A program made the position numbers and the translations under genes. Under the pieces are notes generated by a model. That model saw nothing but the letters and a program-made list of their open reading frames with translations. It had not been told where the DNA came from and did no database searches. Positions 2,433 through 62,220 of a stretch of 64,000 nt of DNA are shown one piece after another. Origin of the DNA: Gammaproteobacteria bacterium (GTDB lineage Bacteria; Pseudomonadota; Gammaproteobacteria; GCA-002705445; GCA-002716945); NCBI GenBank assembly GCA_038101125.1, contig JAYNVZ010000002.1, positions 2,353-66,352 on the forward strand, given 5' to 3'. Positions within the stretch are counted from its first letter, which is position 1. Each line of letters opens with the position of its first letter.

Positions 2433-3512
2433 TTAAAATCTAATATAAGCAGATGAATTCAATGTTTTTCTTCCACCACGCCAGTTATCGATATGATGTT
2501 TAGTAAATGGCAACTCAGTCAATTCAAAGAATCTTGGCCATCCTATTCTTTCAATCCAATCATTTATACGTTCCCAATCCTTAGCATCTTCTTTGTAAAC
2601 TTTTAAGATCCTTTTTACTATAGCAGTCGCTTCTGGCCATCTAGGTGGATTATTAGGTATACCTGCAGCTACTAATTTTTGGAAAGTTGGTTTACTTCTT
2701 GCATTAGAATGGTTGCCACCTACCCAGATAGCTAATTTACTATGCTCTGGATCATTTATTTGCATTGGTGGACACGGAGGAAAACAAGCTCCACAGCAAA
2801 TACATTTCTTTTCATCTACTTCTAGTGAGGCCTTTCCATTAACCATTGCAGGTCTAATCGCTGCAACAGGACATCTAGCTACAACAGATGGTCTCTCACA
2901 TACGTTAGAAACTAGGTCATGATTAATTTTAGGTGGTTTGGTATGTTGTATATTAATTGCAATATCACCTTGACCACCACAGTTTATTTGACAACATGAT
3001 GTAGTCATGTGAACCCTGTTTGGCATCTCATTATTTTTAAATTCATCTATTAACTCATCCATCATTGCCTTTACAACACCAGATGCATCTGTTCCTGGGA
3101 TATCACAATGCAACCATCCTTGAGTATGAGATATCATTGCGACACTATTTTTAGTTCCACCAACAATGAAGCCTTCTTTTTCTAGTGCTTCAATTAATGG
3201 CTCAACTTTTTCTGAGTCTTTGACCATGTATTCAATGTTGCTTCTTATTGTGAATCTTACAAACCCATCTGCATATTTATCACCAATATCACAAAGTGTT
3301 CTTAGGGTAAATACATCTAAAATTCTCTGAGTTCCTGCTCTAATTGTCCAGATTTCATCACCACTCTCTGCCTTATGTCTTAATACTCCAGGCTTAGGGT
3401 GATCATGCCATTTCCATTGTCCAAAATTTTTTCGCATTGTTGGATGCATGTACTGAAATCCATCAGGAGCTCCAGTCTCTATAGGTGATCTTTGTTTTTT
3501 TTGTTCTGTCAT
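2433..3512 (-). CDS. dsrB: Dissimilatory sulfite reductase beta subunit
   Basis: 359 aa. It has sirohaem/FeS-binding Cys clusters and a ferredoxin-like insert (CPVAAIRP...CICCGAC). It follows dsrA. Confidence 0.9.
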   Translation of the reverse strand: MTEQKKQRSPIETGAPDGFQYMHPTMRKNFGQWKWHDHPKPGVLRHKAESGDEIWTIRAGTQRILDVFTLRTLCDIGDKYADGFVRFTIRSNIEYMVKDSEKVEPLIEALEKEGFIVGGTKNSVAMISHTQGWLHCDIPGTDASGVVKAMMDELIDEFKNNEMPNRVHMTTSCCQINCGGQGDIAINIQHTKPPKINHDLVSNVCERPSVVARCPVAAIRPAMVNGKASLEVDEKKCICCGACFPPCPPMQINDPEHSKLAIWVGGNHSNARSKPTFQKLVAAGIPNNPPRWPEATAIVKRILKVYKEDAKDWERINDWIERIGWPRFFELTELPFTKHHIDNWRGGRKTLNSSAYIRF

Positions 3513-5949: not shown

Positions 5950-6624
5950 ATGTGGGAAGAAGAAGAACAAGTTCAGCTCAATGATACATCTAAAATGATA
6001 GATGTAACTTTTAGAATAGATTGCAAAACATTACCCTATGATCATGCTTATGCTTTATCTAATGAAATAACAAAAAATATGCCCTGGCTCTTAGAGAATA
6101 ATTTAACTGGCATACATACGCTTCATGGACCTGAGTCTGGTAATGGCTGGGTAAGATCAGAAAAAGAAGAAATCTTTTTATCCAAAAGAACACGTTTAGT
6201 TCTTAGAATTCCAAGGATTGATATAGAAAAAGCTAAAGAGCTCGAGAATGTTTCTGTGAACGTATTGGGCAATACCATTAAAATTGGTAAATCTAACACT
6301 AAAGCTTTCCTTGTTGTCAGAGACTTAATTAGCAGGTTTGTGTTATGTGACGAGAATGAAACTGAAGAGGACTTTCTTTTAAGTGTAAAAAAAGAATTAT
6401 TTTCTCATGGAGTCATGATAAAAAAAGCAATATGTGGCAAAGAAAAATCTTTCACAATAAATGGTAAAAATAGATTTACTCGCAGCCTGATGATTGCCGA
6501 TCTAAGTAAAGAAAACTCTGTTTTACTCCAAGATACTGGTGTAGGCAGTGGCAGAATATTTGGATGTGGTATTTTTCTACCTCATAAATCAATTGATGCA
6601 GTTTCTGGTTTCAAAGAAGACTAG
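5950..6624 (+). CDS. Cas6-like RAMP-superfamily protein (Cmx6-like), orphan
   Basis: N-terminus MIDVTFRIDCKTLPYDHAYALSNEI resembles the Cas6/Cmx6 N-terminal signature. A C-proximal glycine-rich loop GVGSGRIFGCG matches the GhGxxxxxGhG RAMP motif. No CRISPR repeats are seen in the window. Confidence 0.4.
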   Translation: MWEEEEQVQLNDTSKMIDVTFRIDCKTLPYDHAYALSNEITKNMPWLLENNLTGIHTLHGPESGNGWVRSEKEEIFLSKRTRLVLRIPRIDIEKAKELENVSVNVLGNTIKIGKSNTKAFLVVRDLISRFVLCDENETEEDFLLSVKKELFSHGVMIKKAICGKEKSFTINGKNRFTRSLMIADLSKENSVLLQDTGVGSGRIFGCGIFLPHKSIDAVSGFKED

Positions 6625-10581: not shown

Positions 10582-11207
10582 TTAAGATCTGCAGTCATAA
10601 TCTTTGTGATTGCATTCTCAAGATTAGATTTAAACCTATCGATTAAGCTCCTAAAATAAGATTCAAAAATAACTATTGGAATTGCAACAGAAAGGCCTGC
10701 TGCGGTCGTTAACAAGGCTTCCCATATACCACCAGAGAGGATTGATGGATCAACATTTTTCCCCGCAACTTCCATTTGTTGAAATGCCTCAATCATTCCA
10801 AAAACAGTCCCTAATAAACCCAATAAAGGGGCAATTGCCGCAATTACCTGAAGGCTGTTTAGCTTAGAACTATAATATGTAATCCTTTCATCTGATAATC
10901 TAGCAATTTCTTCCCTTATATCATTATCAAGTTTAACTGTCGGTTTTTTGTGTTTAAGAAGTTGATACATTGTAAACGCCACGACTTCTGTCTGTGGATC
11001 ATCAGCTTTGTTAATTTTTTCGTAAGCTTCATCTTGTTTCTTTAAAAGCCATAAACTTATACTTTCATTTAGATTTTCATTATTAAAGAAGTTAACTTTA
11101 TAAAATATATGTAATTTATAAAAGATGACTGCAGTGGCATATATTGACAGTATAATTAGAATATACACAACAGGTCCGCCAAGTGTTAATAGTGCATTAA
11201 AATCCAT
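10578..11207 (-). CDS. exbB: MotA/TolQ/ExbB proton-channel protein
   Basis: 209 aa, 3 TM with the conserved C-terminal TM pair (LSGGIWEALLTTAAGLSVAIPIV). It is downstream of a TonB-dependent receptor. Confidence 0.8.
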   Translation of the reverse strand: MDFNALLTLGGPVVYILIILSIYATAVIFYKLHIFYKVNFFNNENLNESISLWLLKKQDEAYEKINKADDPQTEVVAFTMYQLLKHKKPTVKLDNDIREEIARLSDERITYYSSKLNSLQVIAAIAPLLGLLGTVFGMIEAFQQMEVAGKNVDPSILSGGIWEALLTTAAGLSVAIPIVIFESYFRSLIDRFKSNLENAITKIMTADLN

Positions 11208-11329: not shown

Positions 11330-13408
11330 TTAAAAATCATAGATTAATGAACCCCAAAAACTTCTTCCTGGCTCATCAACACGATCAGCAGTAGAATCTA
11401 TAGAGTTTGTGCTATTTAAATGAGTCGCATATCTTTTGTCAGTTAAATTGCTCACGCCCATACTGAATCTAATATTCGGTGTTGGCTCAAAACCAGCATA
11501 TATATCATATACTGTGTATCCTCCAGTTCTTCCGCTATCTAAAACTCTTGAATCAAAATTATCCTGAGTATCAGCAAAATTAGCTCTTATACCATAGTTA
11601 ATTGAACCAGTTTGATATTCTAGTGAAATATCCCCTGATAAAGGCATTATCTGGGGTAAAGGTCTATTTTGCGTATCATCATCTCCATGCGTATAATTTA
11701 GATTAAGTGTAGTTTTAACATTAGAAGTAATATTTTTTCTTGCTGTTAACTCATAACCCCAAATTGTAGCATCTACATTCTTATAGACTCTTGCATCATT
11801 AACAGTGTTATCGTATGTTCCATCAGAAACTCTGTAGGTTGTAATATAATCACTAACATCATTGTAATATATGGAACCATTTACATGACTGCCCATAAAC
11901 ATATTTTCGAACCCAAGCTCAAAAGTTGTATGTATCTCAGAATCTAGATTTGGGTTACCAACATGTCTTAGTCTATATTTAGCCCCGCCCATGTTTGTCA
12001 TAGAAGTTTTGGCATTAAACAACTCAGTGGCATCTGGTGTTCTTTCATTTCTACTTAAAGAAATATAAGCGCTAGACATTTGCCCATAGTTCTTCTTGAG
12101 CCTTAAGAAACCACTATAATTATTGAAGTCTCTTTTGCCAGCTGTAACAGTACCAGTGTAGTGAGCTGTGTACAATGAGTTTGCCGGAACCTGTAGCATA
12201 TTACTACCAAAATCATCAGTTGCGCGCGTAGCATTAGTCTCTACTCTGTCAAGTCTAAGGCCATAAGATACTGTTGTTTGATCAGAAACTTTATTGTCAT
12301 TTTCTAAGAAAAATCCAAGTTTAGATATTTCTGCTCCAGGCCACATATACATTAGATTCATTAGCATTCCACTCATGGTCATACTTTGTTCTGCATCTCT
12401 AGTATTATGTTCATAATCTACACCTACCTTCATGCCACTATCCATGGCACCAATTACTCTCCACCCATAAGTATCAGAAGCAGCTGGCGTCTTCATCGAA
12501 TTGGTAGTTCTCATCGTATAGTTATCCATTAAATGATCCATGTCAGAATTATGTAATTCAACTTTCATTGAAGAAAACGGACCGAATGGTGTTACGCGAT
12601 GGTATTTTAAATTATAGATATCAGTATAACTATATGCTATATCCATAGGTAACCCAGCAAACCCAATATTTTCTTGAGAGTTATTAGTATACGTGAATTC
12701 AAGCTTTGAACCATCATCCAATCTTTTGCCTAAGATTGTTGCATAATTACTAGTCTCATATTCTGTGAGCGGCTTTAAGCCTGTCCCTGTCTCATAATTA
12801 CCTGCCTCAGAATAAGATCCATTGATTCTAAAGTAAGCTTGACCTAAACCTAATGTAAAGTCACCTAAAGTAGTTTTACCTTCGGCATTTGAGTCAAATG
12901 TTTGCCCAATTTTTAATTTATAGCCTTTCGATTGAGCTTTATCACCTTTAGATAATCTAGTTTGAGCAAGTGGTTCTGTAATACGCTCATATCTTACTAC
13001 CCCTCCAGGACCACCAGCACCATAGATGACAGATTGAGACCCTTTAATTACAGTAATAGAATCATAGTTCTCAATATTTACATATGTGGACGCAGGATCC
13101 ATTTTAGATGAACAAGCTCCATAAACTATAGCACCATCAATAGATGAGTTAAGTCTTTGATCACTTTGTCCTCTTATCACAGGATCAAGGCCATGACCAC
13201 CACGCCTGATTGTATTAATACCATTGATAGATCTTAAAAGATCTCCACCATCAATAGCATTTTTAGTATTTATATCTTCTATAGCTTGACTGGTTAAGTC
13301 CTGGGTGCTCAAGACTGGCGCAGAAATTTGTATATCTGTTAAATCTTCCGCATGAAGATTGGTCACAAATAATGCCGCTATAAAGAAAACGTATTTATTT
13401 ATATTCAT
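11330..13408 (-). CDS. TonB-dependent outer-membrane receptor
   Basis: 692 aa with a signal peptide, a plug domain with TonB-box-like N-terminus, and a beta-barrel ending in the aromatic C-terminal residue (...LIYDF). Confidence 0.85.
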   Translation of the reverse strand: MNINKYVFFIAALFVTNLHAEDLTDIQISAPVLSTQDLTSQAIEDINTKNAIDGGDLLRSINGINTIRRGGHGLDPVIRGQSDQRLNSSIDGAIVYGACSSKMDPASTYVNIENYDSITVIKGSQSVIYGAGGPGGVVRYERITEPLAQTRLSKGDKAQSKGYKLKIGQTFDSNAEGKTTLGDFTLGLGQAYFRINGSYSEAGNYETGTGLKPLTEYETSNYATILGKRLDDGSKLEFTYTNNSQENIGFAGLPMDIAYSYTDIYNLKYHRVTPFGPFSSMKVELHNSDMDHLMDNYTMRTTNSMKTPAASDTYGWRVIGAMDSGMKVGVDYEHNTRDAEQSMTMSGMLMNLMYMWPGAEISKLGFFLENDNKVSDQTTVSYGLRLDRVETNATRATDDFGSNMLQVPANSLYTAHYTGTVTAGKRDFNNYSGFLRLKKNYGQMSSAYISLSRNERTPDATELFNAKTSMTNMGGAKYRLRHVGNPNLDSEIHTTFELGFENMFMGSHVNGSIYYNDVSDYITTYRVSDGTYDNTVNDARVYKNVDATIWGYELTARKNITSNVKTTLNLNYTHGDDDTQNRPLPQIMPLSGDISLEYQTGSINYGIRANFADTQDNFDSRVLDSGRTGGYTVYDIYAGFEPTPNIRFSMGVSNLTDKRYATHLNSTNSIDSTADRVDEPGRSFWGSLIYDF

Positions 13409-57604: not shown

Positions 57605-57758
57605 TTATTTCTCCTTAGCTAATTAGATTTTGATCAGTTAGTCAATATTTTGGTTTGACATAATTTTTCGTCGACAAAATACTATTCTATTACAATTTGT
57701 TACAATTTTAACAAATGTCCTATGTTTATACTATGATTATAAATAATACATACTATAG

Positions 57759-59540
57759 TTATTCTATAGACTCTTTCTGAAGATTCCACATTTGGAAATA
57801 TAAGCCTTTTGTACTGAGAAGATAATTATGCTTTCCACTTTCAATTATTTCCCCATTATCTAGAACATAAATCTTATGAGAATCTTTAATAGTCGAGAGT
57901 CTATGTGCAATAACTAAAGATGAAATATTCTTTGAAATTGTATTCATTGAACTTAATATTTTACTTTCTGACTTAGAATCTAAACTTGAAGTAGCTTCAT
58001 CAAATAATATAATTTTAGGATTTTTTAGCACTGCTCTAGCGATAGCAACTCGTTGTTTTTCTCCGCCTGAAAGTTTTAATCCTCTTTCACCAACTACTGT
58101 TTCATATTTATCGGGTAGACTATCTATAAAGTCATGAATATTTGCAAGTCTTGCCGCTCTAATTACGTCTTCTTTGTTTGAAGCATTATCAGCATATTGT
58201 ATATTGAAGAAAATACTTTCATTGAAAAGAACGGTATCTTGAGGGACTACAGCTATATTTTTATGTAGACTATATTGGGAGCAATTAGAGATATTTTGAT
58301 CATCTATTGAAATCATACCATCGCTAACATTATAAAATCTATAAAGAAGTCTCCCTATAGTTGATTTTCCTGAAACTGATGGACCAACAATCGCAACTTT
58401 TTTGCCAGCAGGAATCTCTAAAGAAATGTCTTTTAATATGCTCCTATTTTGGTTATATGAAAAAGAAACATCTTTAAATTTTATATTACCAGTCTTAACA
58501 ACCAGATCTTTTGCATTTTCTTTGTCAACTATTTCAATTTTCTGATCTAATAATTTTAATAACATATTCATATCTGCCAAAGCATATGTAATCTGTCTAT
58601 AAACTATGCCTAAAGTATTTAGAGGTACAAATAGTTGTAACATTAATGCATTTACGAGAACTAAGTCGCCCAAAGTCAGTGACCCATCTACAACTCCTGA
58701 TGATGCAAAAATCATTATAATTGTTACGCCAATGGTAATAATTACAGCTTGGCCAAAGTTTAGCAATGACATGGTCTTTGTGCTTTGCATTGCTGCATTC
58801 TCCCACTTGAATAAAACATCGCCATACCGTTTAATTTCATATTCCTCATTATTAAAATACTTAACTGTTTCATAATTTAGCAAACTATCAACAGCAATAG
58901 AATTTGCTTTAGAGTCAAGACGGTTCATCTCATGTCTATAGTTCATCCTCCAATTAGTAACCATTAACGTAAATATAATATAAATAATAATTGTTAATAA
59001 TATTATAAGTGCAAAAGCAGACTCATAAGTTGTAAGTAAAATAGCTCCTACAAGGAGGACTTCAATAAATGTTGGCAAAATAATAAATATCATATAATTA
59101 ATTAGGGATGATAAGCTTTGAGTTCCTCTTTCAAGATCTCTTATAATTGAACCGGTTTGTCTTTCTAGATGAAATCTCAAAGACATTTTATGGAGATGAT
59201 CTAATACTCTTACTGAGATCTTATACACAGCATGGTATCTAACCTTTGCAAATAAAACATCTCTAAGCTCACTGAAAAAAGCTGTAGTGAGTCTCAATGA
59301 GCCATATGCAATTAAAAGGCCAAGCGGTAAAATTAATAAAGTATTGTCATTATTAAGAGAGTCAACTATCTCTTTTAGTAACACTGGAACTGCTACAGTT
59401 GCTACTTTTGCAATCACCAAAAATAGTAGCCCAAAGATAACTCTTGATTTAAAATCCCATATGTATGGGAACATTTTTGTAAGATTATCTAAGTTTTGTC
59501 TATCATCCTCTGATATCTCTGTCCTTGAGGTAAAAATCAT
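57759..59540 (-). CDS. ABC transporter permease/ATPase fusion, Atm1/HMT1-type (ABCB) exporter
   Basis: Six-TM N-terminal domain, then Walker A GPSVSGKST, LSGGEKQR and Walker B ILFDEATS. 593 aa. Confidence 0.8.
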   Translation of the reverse strand: MIFTSRTEISEDDRQNLDNLTKMFPYIWDFKSRVIFGLLFLVIAKVATVAVPVLLKEIVDSLNNDNTLLILPLGLLIAYGSLRLTTAFFSELRDVLFAKVRYHAVYKISVRVLDHLHKMSLRFHLERQTGSIIRDLERGTQSLSSLINYMIFIILPTFIEVLLVGAILLTTYESAFALIILLTIIIYIIFTLMVTNWRMNYRHEMNRLDSKANSIAVDSLLNYETVKYFNNEEYEIKRYGDVLFKWENAAMQSTKTMSLLNFGQAVIITIGVTIIMIFASSGVVDGSLTLGDLVLVNALMLQLFVPLNTLGIVYRQITYALADMNMLLKLLDQKIEIVDKENAKDLVVKTGNIKFKDVSFSYNQNRSILKDISLEIPAGKKVAIVGPSVSGKSTIGRLLYRFYNVSDGMISIDDQNISNCSQYSLHKNIAVVPQDTVLFNESIFFNIQYADNASNKEDVIRAARLANIHDFIDSLPDKYETVVGERGLKLSGGEKQRVAIARAVLKNPKIILFDEATSSLDSKSESKILSSMNTISKNISSLVIAHRLSTIKDSHKIYVLDNGEIIESGKHNYLLSTKGLYFQMWNLQKESIE

Positions 59541-59558
59541 ATTTGTTAATCCAAAACT

Positions 59559-60431
59559 ATTCCACTGTTACTGATTTCGTTCGTTTGGGCATGATGTTCA
59601 TCGGTCTCAACATATTGAGTTTCCTTAGTTTTTTGTATACCTTTTGCTTTATATTAGTATACCAATTTATTGCCTTTACTTAAATTGTGTCTTGCGCATA
59701 GTATTTGGATATTCTTTGGATCTTTAGACGAACCGCCTTTTGAGAAAGGAATTTTATGGTCAAAGTGTAGATTATCTTTTGCGCCACAGACAACACACTT
59801 TCCCTCATCTCTAATAAATACATCTTGCATAACATCTCCTGGGATATATCTATTATGTACTATATCAATATTATCAGATTCCTCAGGTTTAAAATTATCA
59901 AAATTAGGTCTCAAAAGAAATTTAAAAACATTTCGTTTGCCATCATGTTCTATAAACGCGTCGATTAAATCATAAAAGTCCATATCTGCCCACATTCCAA
60001 TCCTCATCTTCCTATATACTTTTATTTTTGCCGGATCTCTTTTACCGTCCTTAAATTTTTCTGCTGCTAGAAGAAATTTTCCGTTCTGAGTCAATGTCCC
60101 TGTTTTATTTTTAATTGGTTGATCAACTGTCTTTTTGAGTTCTTTCTCTATCCTATATTGATCATGCCCTTCATATTTAATTACTCCATTTTCTAGCATC
60201 TCATCTGAGTATGGAGCATTCCTTAGGGTGGACATTAGAACAATTGAGTATGATCCACGAATCCCAAAATTCATTCCTGCCTGAAGATTTATACCTCCCT
60301 CATTCATTACTAGAGTATTATATGTAATAAGTTTCATCTTTGTTTGTTACCATTCGTGATTTAATTATAGGACATGCCCACCCTTTCCAAAAGGAACTAC
60401 TCCACTGTGACTGATTTTGCTAGATTTCGTG
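59559..60431. mobile_element. Small insertion (~0.8 kb, HNH endonuclease cargo) at the glmS 3-prime end, flanked by imperfect direct repeats duplicating the last glmS codons
   Basis: 60401-60431 tccactgtgactgattttgctagatttcgtg is the functional glmS terminus (...NLAKSVTVE*). 59561-59590 tccactgttactgatttcgttcgtttggg is a decayed copy encoding ...PKRTKSVTVE*. About 20 of the first 22 nt are identical. Confidence 0.55.
59654..60337 (-). CDS. Free-standing HNH endonuclease with uncharacterised N-terminal domain
   Basis: C-terminus CVVCGAKDNLHFDHKIPFSKGGSSKDPKNIQILCARHN is a zinc-finger-bracketed HNH motif. It sits in a roughly 0.8 kb insert flanked by duplicated glmS 3-prime ends. Confidence 0.7.
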   Translation of the reverse strand: MKLITYNTLVMNEGGINLQAGMNFGIRGSYSIVLMSTLRNAPYSDEMLENGVIKYEGHDQYRIEKELKKTVDQPIKNKTGTLTQNGKFLLAAEKFKDGKRDPAKIKVYRKMRIGMWADMDFYDLIDAFIEHDGKRNVFKFLLRPNFDNFKPEESDNIDIVHNRYIPGDVMQDVFIRDEGKCVVCGAKDNLHFDHKIPFSKGGSSKDPKNIQILCARHNLSKGNKLVY

Positions 60432-62220
60432 GCTGATCAATATTTGTTTTCTTATTGATAGCTACATAATATGACAACAACTGCATAGGTATTACATAAA
60501 CCAGTGGCGCTATGTAGTGTCCGCATGCTGGCATAGATATAATATTAGTCTTATCATTTTTCTTAAGTTTCATTTTTTTGTTAGTGAAGATATAGACCAA
60601 TCCTTGTCTTGCTTTAACTTCAGCTAGATTTGATAATACTTGGGTTACTAAATTGTTATCTGGCATTAAACCTACTACAGGCATGTTCTTATCAACCAAT
60701 GCTAACGGCCCATGTTTTAATTCTCCAGCTGCATACCCTTCTGCATGGATGTAACTAATCTCTTTCAATTTCAATGCTGCCTCAAGCGCAATTGGATAAG
60801 ATGCACCTCTTCCTAAAAATAACGTATGATTTTTATTCTTAAACTGTTTTGCCATTAATTGCATTTCTTTTTCAAGCTCAAAGGTTTTTGATAATATTCT
60901 AGGTAGTGATTTAATTTGGTTAATAATTTTACTCTCTAGTTTAGAATCAGATGCTCTCGACAACGTTGTTGCAAGTAACAGAAGAGCAATTAGCTGTGAG
61001 GTGAATGCTTTAGTTGATGCAACACTGACTTCAGGGCCTGCTTGCATGAGATAACTATAATCTGAAAGTCTTGTGATTGTACTTTCTGCGACGTTACAAA
61101 TTGATAGGATAGAACTATATTTGCTCTGTTTTGCTTTTTTTAAAGAATAAATTGTATCAGCAGTTTCACCTGACTGAGAGATTGCAACAAATAAAGTGTC
61201 TTTTGGTACGTTGATTGTTCTATACCTGTATTCACTTGCAATTTCAGCAGTACACATAATATCTGAAACTTCTTCAATCCAATATTTAGCAACTAACGAT
61301 GCATTATAGCTAGTTCCACAAGCGACGAAGTGGACATGCTTAATAGATTTCAACATAGAATCAGATTTTGGTCCAAATATATTTGGCAAGATTTTTGATG
61401 TGCCTAGTTTATCTTTTATGACTCTAGTAATAATATCTTTTTGTTCAAAGATTTCTTTTTGCATAAAATGTTTATAGCCATTTTTTGAAATTGCATTTGT
61501 ATTTTGTTTAGTTACTGATGCTAAGCGTTTTATTCTTTTACCTTTTACATTGAATAGCTCTACCTTATCTTTTGTTATTATTCCAAACTCATTATCCTCA
61601 AGTGAGATATATTTTTTTGTTTTACTGACAAGTGCATTTATATCTGATGAGATATAGTTCGTATTCTTACCCATTCCAATCAATAGAGGGCTACCATTTG
61701 AAGCAACAAAAATCTTATCTGGTTCCTTTTCATAAACTATGCCTAATGCAAAAGAGCCTTTAAGTTTTTTAAATGCATTAAGGAGTATATCAGACAGCTT
61801 GTTGTGTTTTTTAGAAAAGTATTCTAGTAAGTGCGCAATAACTTCTGAGTCTGTATCTGATGAGAATTTATGTGACTTTTTAGACAGAAAGATTTTAATC
61901 TCCTCAAAGTTTTCAATGATTCCATTATGTACTATTGAAAATCCACCATAGTTGTGCGGGTGTGAGTTTTTTAAATTTGGTACACCATGCGTTGCCCATC
62001 TAGTATGGGCTATTCCACAGTAACCCGTTAGTTTATTAGAAGCTAATATTTTTTTAAGAGCAACCACCTTACCGGTGCATCTAAGTCTTTTTATTTTATT
62101 AGATTTTGAAATTAATGTAAGTCCAGCTGAATCATATCCACGATATTCAAGTTTCGACAAGCCTTCTATAAGATCTTTATGGACATGCGAAGATGACACT
62201 GCGCCAAATATCCCGCACAT
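60397..62220 (-). CDS. glmS: Glutamine--fructose-6-phosphate aminotransferase
   Basis: MCGIFGAV N-terminal nucleophile, two SIS domains and the canonical C-terminus ...DQPRNLAKSVTVE. 607 aa. Confidence 0.95.
   Translation of the reverse strand: MCGIFGAVSSSHVHKDLIEGLSKLEYRGYDSAGLTLISKSNKIKRLRCTGKVVALKKILASNKLTGYCGIAHTRWATHGVPNLKNSHPHNYGGFSIVHNGIIENFEEIKIFLSKKSHKFSSDTDSEVIAHLLEYFSKKHNKLSDILLNAFKKLKGSFALGIVYEKEPDKIFVASNGSPLLIGMGKNTNYISSDINALVSKTKKYISLEDNEFGIITKDKVELFNVKGKRIKRLASVTKQNTNAISKNGYKHFMQKEIFEQKDIITRVIKDKLGTSKILPNIFGPKSDSMLKSIKHVHFVACGTSYNASLVAKYWIEEVSDIMCTAEIASEYRYRTINVPKDTLFVAISQSGETADTIYSLKKAKQSKYSSILSICNVAESTITRLSDYSYLMQAGPEVSVASTKAFTSQLIALLLLATTLSRASDSKLESKIINQIKSLPRILSKTFELEKEMQLMAKQFKNKNHTLFLGRGASYPIALEAALKLKEISYIHAEGYAAGELKHGPLALVDKNMPVVGLMPDNNLVTQVLSNLAEVKARQGLVYIFTNKKMKLKKNDKTNIISMPACGHYIAPLVYVIPMQLLSYYVAINKKTNIDQPRNLAKSVTVE

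Follow-up and report, generated by a model that had tools for sequence, protein, structure and literature searches.

A nuclease gene inserted at the 3' end of glmS is probably the cargo of a recombinase-less cassette in an attachment site shared with large serine recombinases

We analysed a 64-kb stretch of a gammaproteobacterial contig (JAYNVZ010000002.1, assembly GCA_038101125.1; the window hereafter), in which the end of the gene glmS occurs twice, 840 bp apart, with a single nuclease gene lying between the two copies. The 840-bp insert is, in our judgement, probably a non-autonomous integrative cassette that carries cargo only and occupies an attachment site used by large serine recombinases (LSRs) of one family. 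Insertion at this place is site-specific and supplies glmS with a replacement terminus, insertions of this kind are present or absent among near-identical strains, and many alternative cargos and tandem arrays occupy the site. In addition, LSR elements are integrated at the same glmS site, and free LSR elements carry a mimic of it in their attachment site attP. All of the evidence on mobility is comparative, that is, derived from the comparison of sequences. The features of the locus are listed below; coordinates refer to the + strand of the window, and the genes of the locus lie on the - strand.

57759..59540, - strand: ABC transporter, 593 aa, backbone neighbour (Pfam ABC_membrane and ABC_tran)
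59541..59556, - strand: TTTTGGATTAACAAAT, host or older sequence from attR to the start codon of the ABC transporter
59557-59574, - strand: attR core TCAGTAACAGTGGAATAG, displaced former glmS terminus, in the same orientation as the attL core
59567..60406, - strand: inserted cassette, 840 bp, with borders set at the putative AC crossover in each core
59575..59619, - strand: cassette 3' arm CTCAATATGTTGAGACCGATGAACATCATGCCCAAACGAACGAAA, including IR-L CCAAACGAAC (59579-59588) and a 4-nt spacer GAAA
59654..60337, - strand: cargo gene, predicted SRA-HNH modification-dependent (type IV) restriction endonuclease, 227 aa (Pfam, AF2 model, Foldseek)
60338..60396, - strand: cassette 5' leader, holding IR-R TTCCTTTTGG (60387-60396) inside the conserved block TTCCTTTTGGAAAGGGTGGGCATGTCCTAT (60367-60396)
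60397-60414, - strand: attL core TCAGTCACAGTGGAGTAG (S V T V E stop), the last 18 nt of glmS
60397..62220, - strand: glmS, glutamine-fructose-6-phosphate aminotransferase, host gene (Pfam GATase_6/7 and SIS domains; reading frame ending NLAKSVTVE-stop)

The attachment site comprises the last six codons of glmS, an essential gene whose 3' end in the window reads ...DQPRNLAKSVTVE-stop. The attL core TCAGTCACAGTGGAGTAG recurs as TCAGTAACAGTGGAATAG 840 bp downstream, and the complete direct repeat covers 32 nt at 81% identity (copies 59555-59586 and 60395-60426, spacing 840 bp). The degenerate 23-mer CTAYTCCACTGTKACTGATTTYG, which covers both copies, has exactly two match places in the 64 kb and gave 0 matches in 100 dinucleotide-preserving shuffles of the window, which rules out a chance repeat. 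The distal copy reads MPKRTKSVTVE-stop and is joined to no gene; the ABC-transporter gene starts 16 nt past it, and the first 7-9 nt of the intervening TTTTGGATTAACAAAT (59541..59556) are similar to the start of a cassette 5' arm. A first-pass annotation of the window had described a duplicated glmS terminus enclosing a single HNH gene. The 32-nt repeat, the shuffles and the presence of only one open reading frame (ORF) between the copies (59654..60337, 227 aa) bear this out; the coordinates given there for the copies (59561-59590 and 60401-60431) were right to within a few bases, and the possibility named there, that the similarity might not be significant against a shuffled background, is removed by the same 0 matches in 100 shuffles. 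Rfam and promoter/terminator scans of the region returned nothing relevant, and an exact look-up of the window GlmS returned no record.

Related loci (designated L below) show the site both empty and occupied. The first-pass annotation had also proposed an insertion into the glmS 3' end with a replacement terminus and displacement of the old one, which the relatives support, and it had predicted relatives with the ABC transporter directly after glmS. Such relatives were found: in 10 contigs (L176-L185, GlmS 85% identical) the ABC gene lies 116 nt after glmS and there is no HNH gene. Their backbone is that of the window (atp operon, glmU, glmS, ABC transporter, Nuc_deoxyri_tr3, DUF2805, a 91-aa gene, HIT, SRAP), the ABC transporter of the window being 84% identical in amino acid sequence to its L176 counterpart. 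A closer comparison is offered by contigs that encode one identical GlmS (P0140): L187 and L190 are empty, with the next backbone gene directly after glmS, and L186, L188 and L189 hold a 980-bp insert with a DUF3427/NucS-type nuclease, which matches PDC-S02, a candidate defence family of PADLOC, at E 1e-42. Apart from the presence or absence of this 980-bp cassette, only 7 single-nucleotide polymorphisms in 14.8 kb of flanks separate L186 from L187 (99.95% identical). Despite this near identity of the strains, the two 18-bp repeats flanking the 980-bp cassette differ at core position 6, and the distal copy is therefore partly element-borne and not a target-site duplication; the mismatch rules out duplication of the target by a transposase or a casposase-like enzyme. 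L019 is likewise the empty counterpart of L102, which holds a 385-aa HNH_2 cargo, and the bases 3' of the L102 relic are those found 3' of the glmS stop in L019. Further empty sites are L017, L106 and L118. The site is also occupied differently in close relatives of the window, namely by a cassette with a 175-aa ORF in L101 (GlmS 98% identical to that of the window) and by yet another cassette in L193 (95% identical).

Counted over two gammaproteobacterial clades with GC contents of 33% and 49%, at least 20 unrelated cargo units come immediately after glmS, and behind each of them lies a displaced SVTVE-stop relic. Some encode nucleases (SRA-HNH, DUF3427-NucS, HNH_2, HNH-HIT, Exo_endo_phos), others a PrsW protease, small membrane proteins or lipoproteins, and many consist of ORFs without a Pfam match; none of these units encodes a recombinase. 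The cassettes are compact (0.3-3 kb), their cargo abuts well-conserved ends, and no recombinase pseudogene is present in any. Different cargos were found even beside one identical GlmS protein (P0146), and a cassette for a 49-aa membrane peptide occurs at glmS in three hosts (L009, L108, L203). Tandem arrays were seen in L104, L194, L009 and L010. Cassette B of L194 is separated from glmS by cassette A, but in L195 it stands immediately next to glmS; new cassettes therefore enter on the glmS-proximal side. Most cargo has the orientation of glmS, and cassette ORFs that lack a 5' arm begin 0-5 nt past the glmS stop (stop/start junctions: L102 5776-5781, TAGATG; L016 7825-7833, TAATCAATG; L195 8825-8832, TAGACATG; L202 3225-3233, TGAGAAATG), an arrangement suggesting that they are expressed by read-through from glmS or by translational coupling to it. 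In L191, L192 and L200, metagenomic contigs up to 28 kb long, the sequence breaks off 4-9 nt past the glmS stop, which is consistent with assembly breaks at a strain-variable, hypervariable site.

The recombinases associated with the site were recognised in L203, a locus found by a scan of viral contigs for the glmS core. Here the glmS 3' end is followed by a 10.5-kb element, at whose far end lies a gene for a 554-aa LSR (domains Resolvase, Recombinase and Zn_ribbon_recom), then by attR and the 49-aa cassette. The element also carries a small resolvase, methyltransferases including a C5 DNA methylase, and a G2P-like Rep, and TCCATCACTGTCGAGTAA lies 34 nt past the LSR gene. The LSR family counts 699 homologues at E<1e-20, and LSRs of this one family were linked to the same glmS core in 8/8 independent loci. 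Identities in the following list are to the LSR of L203.

L205/L206, LSR 95% identical: element half ...CGAAATTTAT TCCATCAC as in L203; host half different, AGTGGAGTAA with a GC-rich flank
L208 (Pseudidiomarina taiwanensis, PIQG01000004), LSR 74% identical: Type I restriction-modification cargo; attR
L211, LSR 61% identical: complete 2.98-kb element between the glmS end and attR
L215, LSR 38% identical: relic 80 nt past the LSR
L217, free form without glmS, 4.2-kb contig: GAGAATACACTAAC-ACTCACAA-AGTGTTACGGTGGAATAG-TTTG-GTTAGTGTATTCTC
L293-L295, free form without glmS, circular 8.47-kb episome: AGAATTTCTTAAATA-CCAC-TCGGTTACGGTCGAGTAG-TATTAAAGAAATTCT

In L217, 14-bp perfect inverted repeats surround AGTGTTACGGTGGAATAG, and L293, L294 and L295 (8470 nt each) are three circular permutations of one episome. 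This episome encodes a rolling-circle Rep (G2P-like), a NERD/Top1-zinc-ribbon protein, a 946-aa protein and a 199-aa tyrosine recombinase beside its LSR; in L203 and L217 the LSR is accompanied by another, smaller serine recombinase. In L216, a 157-nt perfect inverted duplication consisting of the glmS core and element flank lies on both sides of the LSR gene (1228-1384 and 3000-3156) and reflects either an assembly fold-back or a recombinase-mediated inversion. Among named proteins the LSRs come closest to CcrB, XisF and the TP901-1 and A118 integrases, in each case with scores far under the family cut-off; the best NCBIfam match, CcrB, reached 103 bits against a cut-off of 900, and the glmS-associated LSRs are therefore a different family. 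No homologue at E<1e-30 was present in 50,697 phage and 72,556 plasmid records. In the full-text literature, where coverage was incomplete and a negative is weak evidence, we found no description of a recombinase using the glmS terminus, nor of glmS together with an integrase or serine recombinase.

The cassette chromosomes of staphylococci and enterococci (SCCmec, pseudo-SCC, ECC), which are moved by Ccr large serine recombinases, have direct repeats at both ends and inverted repeats that give their element site dyad symmetry, and serine-integrase sites are recognised by dyad symmetry at a central dinucleotide, beside the integrase gene (PMC6222049). The LSR att sites are symmetric about a point between core positions 7 and 8, where the AC of the Thr codon lies. 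The exchange point is bracketed by the pairs L203/L205, L186/L187, L102/L019 and L194/L195, in agreement with this centre; when L205/L206 are set beside L203, the element part is unchanged up to and including core position 8, and variation begins with the host part at position 9. The AC is thus the putative crossover dinucleotide, and the part of attL that lies 3' of it (core positions 7-8) would be cassette-borne. A crossover to the left of core position 3, considered from the comparison of the window with L101, was dropped: the glmS genes differ by 5% overall, and two wobble differences are unremarkable.

The ends of the cassettes resemble these sites. Many cassettes have ...CCAAWCAAAAC-AAA before the relic and KTTTKGTTGG... 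right after the glmS stop, that is, inverted repeats. The 5' block of the window leader also follows the glmS stop before other cargo in L101, L098, L097, L103 and L104, and the 3'-arm block of the window is conserved in cassettes with other cargo in L097, L100, L104 and L016. The small cassettes share the layout of the LSR attP, with 22 nt between the arms and the centre between A and C, and the arms of the window cassette have this 22-nt distance as well. Dyad symmetry around the crossover dinucleotide is clear in the LSR elements L217, L293 and L203 and in the cassettes L104, L097 and L009c1. The joined ends of L104 form a 19-bp perfect hairpin (z = -5.2), those of L097 and L009c1 are also strong, and the arms of one cassette pair better with each other than with the arms of different cassettes (permutation p = 0.014).

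From these observations, a mechanism may be proposed in which attB would be the last six codons and stop of glmS, and attP a palindrome in which two inverted arms of 10-18 bp, separated by 22 nt, enclose an element-borne 'S V T V E stop'. Strand exchange at the central AC of the Thr codon would keep glmS intact, now ended by element-borne codons (attL, 60397-60414), and would push the old glmS terminus to the far end of the element (attR, 59557-59574); new elements would enter at the glmS-proximal position and so build arrays. The LSR family is the likely engine of this mobility. The window cassette itself would owe its movement to an LSR provided in trans or, in cis, to accretion beside an LSR element followed by excision of the composite unit.

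Several findings weigh against such a cassette. The window arms CCAAACGAAC and TTCCTTTTGG pair at 7/10 positions in register, and the fold of their junction is modest (z = -1.9). Arm complementarity is strong in about 4-5/14 cassettes, the permutation effect comes from about a third of them, and the cassettes of L016 and L102 are without any 5' arm. An LSR with window-type attP arms (CCAAACRAAC / GTTYKTTTGG) was not found, the arm sequence of the small cassettes differing from the three LSR subtypes seen. The 64-kb window contains no LSR by tblastn with three LSRs as queries, and no circular form of any recombinase-less cassette was seen. Finally, the 'empty' sites of L176-L185 (8825-8855) keep an arm-like block GTTTCTTTGGACAGGACGGGCAGTCCTAT after the glmS stop, with neither a complementary 3' arm nor a relic downstream of it; the block may have been left behind by an excised cassette, or may be a host terminator copied by cassettes. 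Scans of viral contigs for the small-cassette motifs (3' arm plus core, and core plus 5' arm) had no matches, a Pfam scan of the ten uncharacterised ORFs of the window detected no recombinase, and the alignment of cassette 3' ends was too heterogeneous to reveal conserved secondary structure.

The imperfect arms of the window and the failure to find a matching LSR or a circular small cassette would also fit a different explanation, in which the insert, like the other cassettes, is a stranded and immobile remnant left by deletion from a larger, recombinase-bearing element; LSR elements of 3 to >10 kb do integrate at the same site. We regard this as unlikely. At least 20 cassettes are compact (0.3-3 kb), with cargo abutting conserved ends and no recombinase pseudogene, the same cassette may stand first or second in arrays and recurs in distant hosts, and presence and absence alternate among 99.95%-identical strains.

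A considerably smaller probability is assigned to exchange brought about mainly by homologous recombination or transformation, as in a 'replacement flexible island', or to integron-like capture by a tyrosine recombinase. Contigs often break at the site, which points to population heterogeneity; the cassettes are promoterless, co-oriented and free of recombinases, as in integrons, and the circular episome L293 does encode a small tyrosine recombinase. Homologous exchange, however, cannot create an element-borne duplicate core. As for integrons, the attC-type RYYYAAC/GTTRRRY signature is absent at the cassette ends as read from their sequence, there is no adjacent intI (the upstream genes are atp-glmU-glmS), and dyad symmetry at a central dinucleotide, together with a site right after the LSR gene, is a hallmark of serine integrases.

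The first-pass annotation had likened the insert to homing-endonuclease or integrase islands and had described the N-terminal domain of the HNH protein as unknown. The view of this protein as the agent of mobility did not hold up, and no sign of homing was seen. The HNH domain (PF01844, the beta-beta-alpha-metal nuclease motif) is C-terminal (residues 181-224, E 6e-8), and residues C181, C184, H191, D193, H194, N209, H217 and N218 are invariant in the alignment. A Pfam match to SAD_SRA was sub-threshold (E 0.045), and a PDB sequence search matched the HNH motif alone, to IscB, with no match to TagI or ScoMcrA. The SRA domain was revealed by a fold search rather than by the PDB sequence search: with an AlphaFold (AF2) model built from 39 homologues (mean pLDDT 83.8), the best Foldseek match in the PDB was the type IV enzyme ScoMcrA (SBD-SRA-HNH, E 5e-6), followed by the SRA domains of plant SUVH5 (TM on target 0.63-0.64), AspBHI and the SRA domain of UHRF1. 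An N-terminal SRA fold with a C-terminal HNH domain is the architecture of modification-dependent restriction enzymes; the cargo gene is therefore predicted by the model to encode an SRA-HNH type IV restriction enzyme and not a homing endonuclease. TagI, ScoA3IV and TbiR51I are SRA-HNH members of the modification-dependent restriction endonuclease family (PMC6212794, PMC6765204). The window protein resembles these enzymes and ScoMcrA in its N-terminal SRA fold and C-terminal HNH domain and differs in being shorter (227 aa) and in lacking a sequence-level match in the PDB to TagI or ScoMcrA. As judged from the modelled fold, it is likely to serve in anti-phage defence against DNA with modified cytosines, and it would be active as a defence enzyme. 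The nuclease is cargo and has no part in mobility.

The SRA-HNH family has 758 homologues in marine bacteria and archaea. Its gene lies downstream of glmS in the window, L009 and L013, directly after glmS in the window and L013. The window protein is 81% and 69% identical to those of L009 and L013, respectively, whereas the GlmS proteins of the same pairs are only 44% and 36% identical, and the gene therefore moves horizontally. The 64-kb window holds no second copy. A 78%-identical SRA-HNH gene is found in a tRNA-Phe island (L003 5740-7766, and L004), which also holds HIT, HNH_4 (309 aa) and NucS-like genes and is a small nuclease island of another integration type.

That the HNH protein is a free-standing homing endonuclease, which cut the empty glmS-ABC junction and was copied in by repair, is on this evidence very improbable. 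HNH nucleases do include homing enzymes, and the gene is solitary and horizontally spread. The N-terminal domain, however, is predicted to be an SRA reader of modified cytosines with its best fold match in type IV ScoMcrA, homing would not create the element-borne duplicate of the target that is present here, and the same junction architecture surrounds unrelated cargo (a NucS-like nuclease, a PrsW protease, small membrane proteins), at least 20 such units sharing the same ends at a site linked to LSRs; a 78%-identical copy, moreover, sits in the tRNA-Phe island. The last alternative, a remnant of a Tn7-like transposon at attTn7, has next to nothing to recommend it beyond the facts that Tn7 classically inserts downstream of glmS and that L208 has a Tn7-like element there: the junction lies inside the last codons and not about 25 bp downstream, the window cassette has neither a TGT...ACA end nor repeated TnsB sites, its flanks (59 and 79 nt) are too short for them, and the repeat is 18 bp and element-borne rather than a 5-bp duplication. 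The remark of the first-pass annotation that the insertion carries no Tn7 machinery is supported, and L208 separates the two kinds of element. Its Tn7-like right end (11682-12110), with TGTGAATTAGGAATAAAGTCG..., four repeats and then tnsA and tnsB, starts exactly 25 nt past the displaced glmS stop, the canonical distance, apart from the LSR junction; the serine-recombinase element was therefore integrated after the Tn7-like element, between it and glmS.

For the cargo-only cassette in an LSR attachment site, the closest known system is SCCmec and its ECC relatives, in which Ccr recombinases act on the rlmH 3' end; the two systems follow one logic and differ in target, recombinase family, hosts and cassette scale. 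As in SCCmec, pseudo-SCC and ECC, integration takes place in the last codons of a conserved housekeeping gene (there rlmH), which stays intact, direct repeats bound the element, and tandem composite arrays and recombinase-less elements occur. Composite SCC islands grow by accretion beside a recombinase element and are excised as composite units. The glmS elements, unlike SCCmec, target glmS in marine Gammaproteobacteria, carry one LSR at the att-proximal end instead of a ccrAB pair, and include cassettes that are far smaller, often a single gene of 0.3-1 kb and some starting 0-5 nt past the stop. With the large serine integrases of phages and integrative and conjugative elements (A118, TP901-1, Bxb1, phiC31), the glmS LSRs share the Resolvase, Recombinase and zinc-ribbon domains, an attP beside the integrase gene, palindromic half-sites and a central dinucleotide; they differ in targeting the glmS terminus and in being carried by small rolling-circle-Rep episomes and islands. 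Tn7, through TnsD and attTn7, uses the same universally conserved glmS landmark, also without inactivating glmS. It does so by DDE transposition about 25 bp downstream of glmS with a 5-bp duplication, whereas the elements described here would recombine conservatively inside the last codons and bring a replacement terminus; L208 has both side by side. Integron cassettes, tRNA flexible islands and tycheposon satellites are likewise small, mostly single-gene, co-oriented and recombinase-less units with a structured recombination site, and their new cassettes, too, enter the first position; here, however, the target is the terminus of a protein gene and not attI or a tRNA, and the associated recombinase is a serine and not a tyrosine enzyme. 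Additive flexible islands at tRNA genes, which like integrons are functional analogues of the glmS system, also form arrays marked by repeats of the last ~20 nt of the target (PMC10872708).

Several further features of the window and its relatives were noted. A weak string resembling the glmS core, AAATTGTAATAGAATAGTATTTT, lies between the stop of the ABC transporter and a 148-aa gene (57671-57701, - strand); the match is not significant and nothing comparable exists in L176. The string might be what is left of an older, decayed relic, in which case the ABC gene would be an ancient cassette; we do not claim this. Downstream of the ABC transporter, L177 has a 124-aa ORF (10709-11083) in place of the 149-aa Nuc_deoxyri_tr3 gene of L176 (10874-11323), the backbone being otherwise identical, and this is a second variable spot. 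A putatively orphan Cas6/Cmx6 homologue (5950-6624, + strand; TIGR02807, 112 bits against a cut-off of 98.85; Pfam PF09559, E 1e-52) sits between a TauD-like gene and a dsrC/tusE-like gene, beside a dsr sulfur-oxidation cluster.

More tentatively, and with rather less confidence than we place in the window cassette, glmS may be viewed as a platform of integron-like gene capture by serine recombinases. LSRs supplied in trans by small episomes would act on dozens of promoterless single-gene cassettes with palindromic att sites that mimic the glmS stop, many of them coding for type IV restriction or other defence nucleases. Such cassettes would be captured by entry at the first position after glmS, would owe their expression to read-through or translational coupling and would be shuffled among distantly related marine bacteria, and the system would represent a second, independent invention of glmS-terminus targeting besides the TnsD of Tn7.

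For annotation, the locus warns against taking every solitary HNH gene beside a duplicated gene end for a homing endonuclease. The glmS terminus is the landmark that made Tn7 a broad-host-range engineering tool, and the LSR family (~700 homologues at E<1e-20), for which we found no description in the literature searched, would have this near-universal terminus as its natural attB; such integrases could give unidirectional, single-protein, broad-host-range insertion. For streamlined uncultured marine bacteria, the cassettes imply that single defence genes can be gained or swapped without an integrase in the island, by a mechanism resembling that of SCCmec and at the most conserved bacterial 'safe harbour'.

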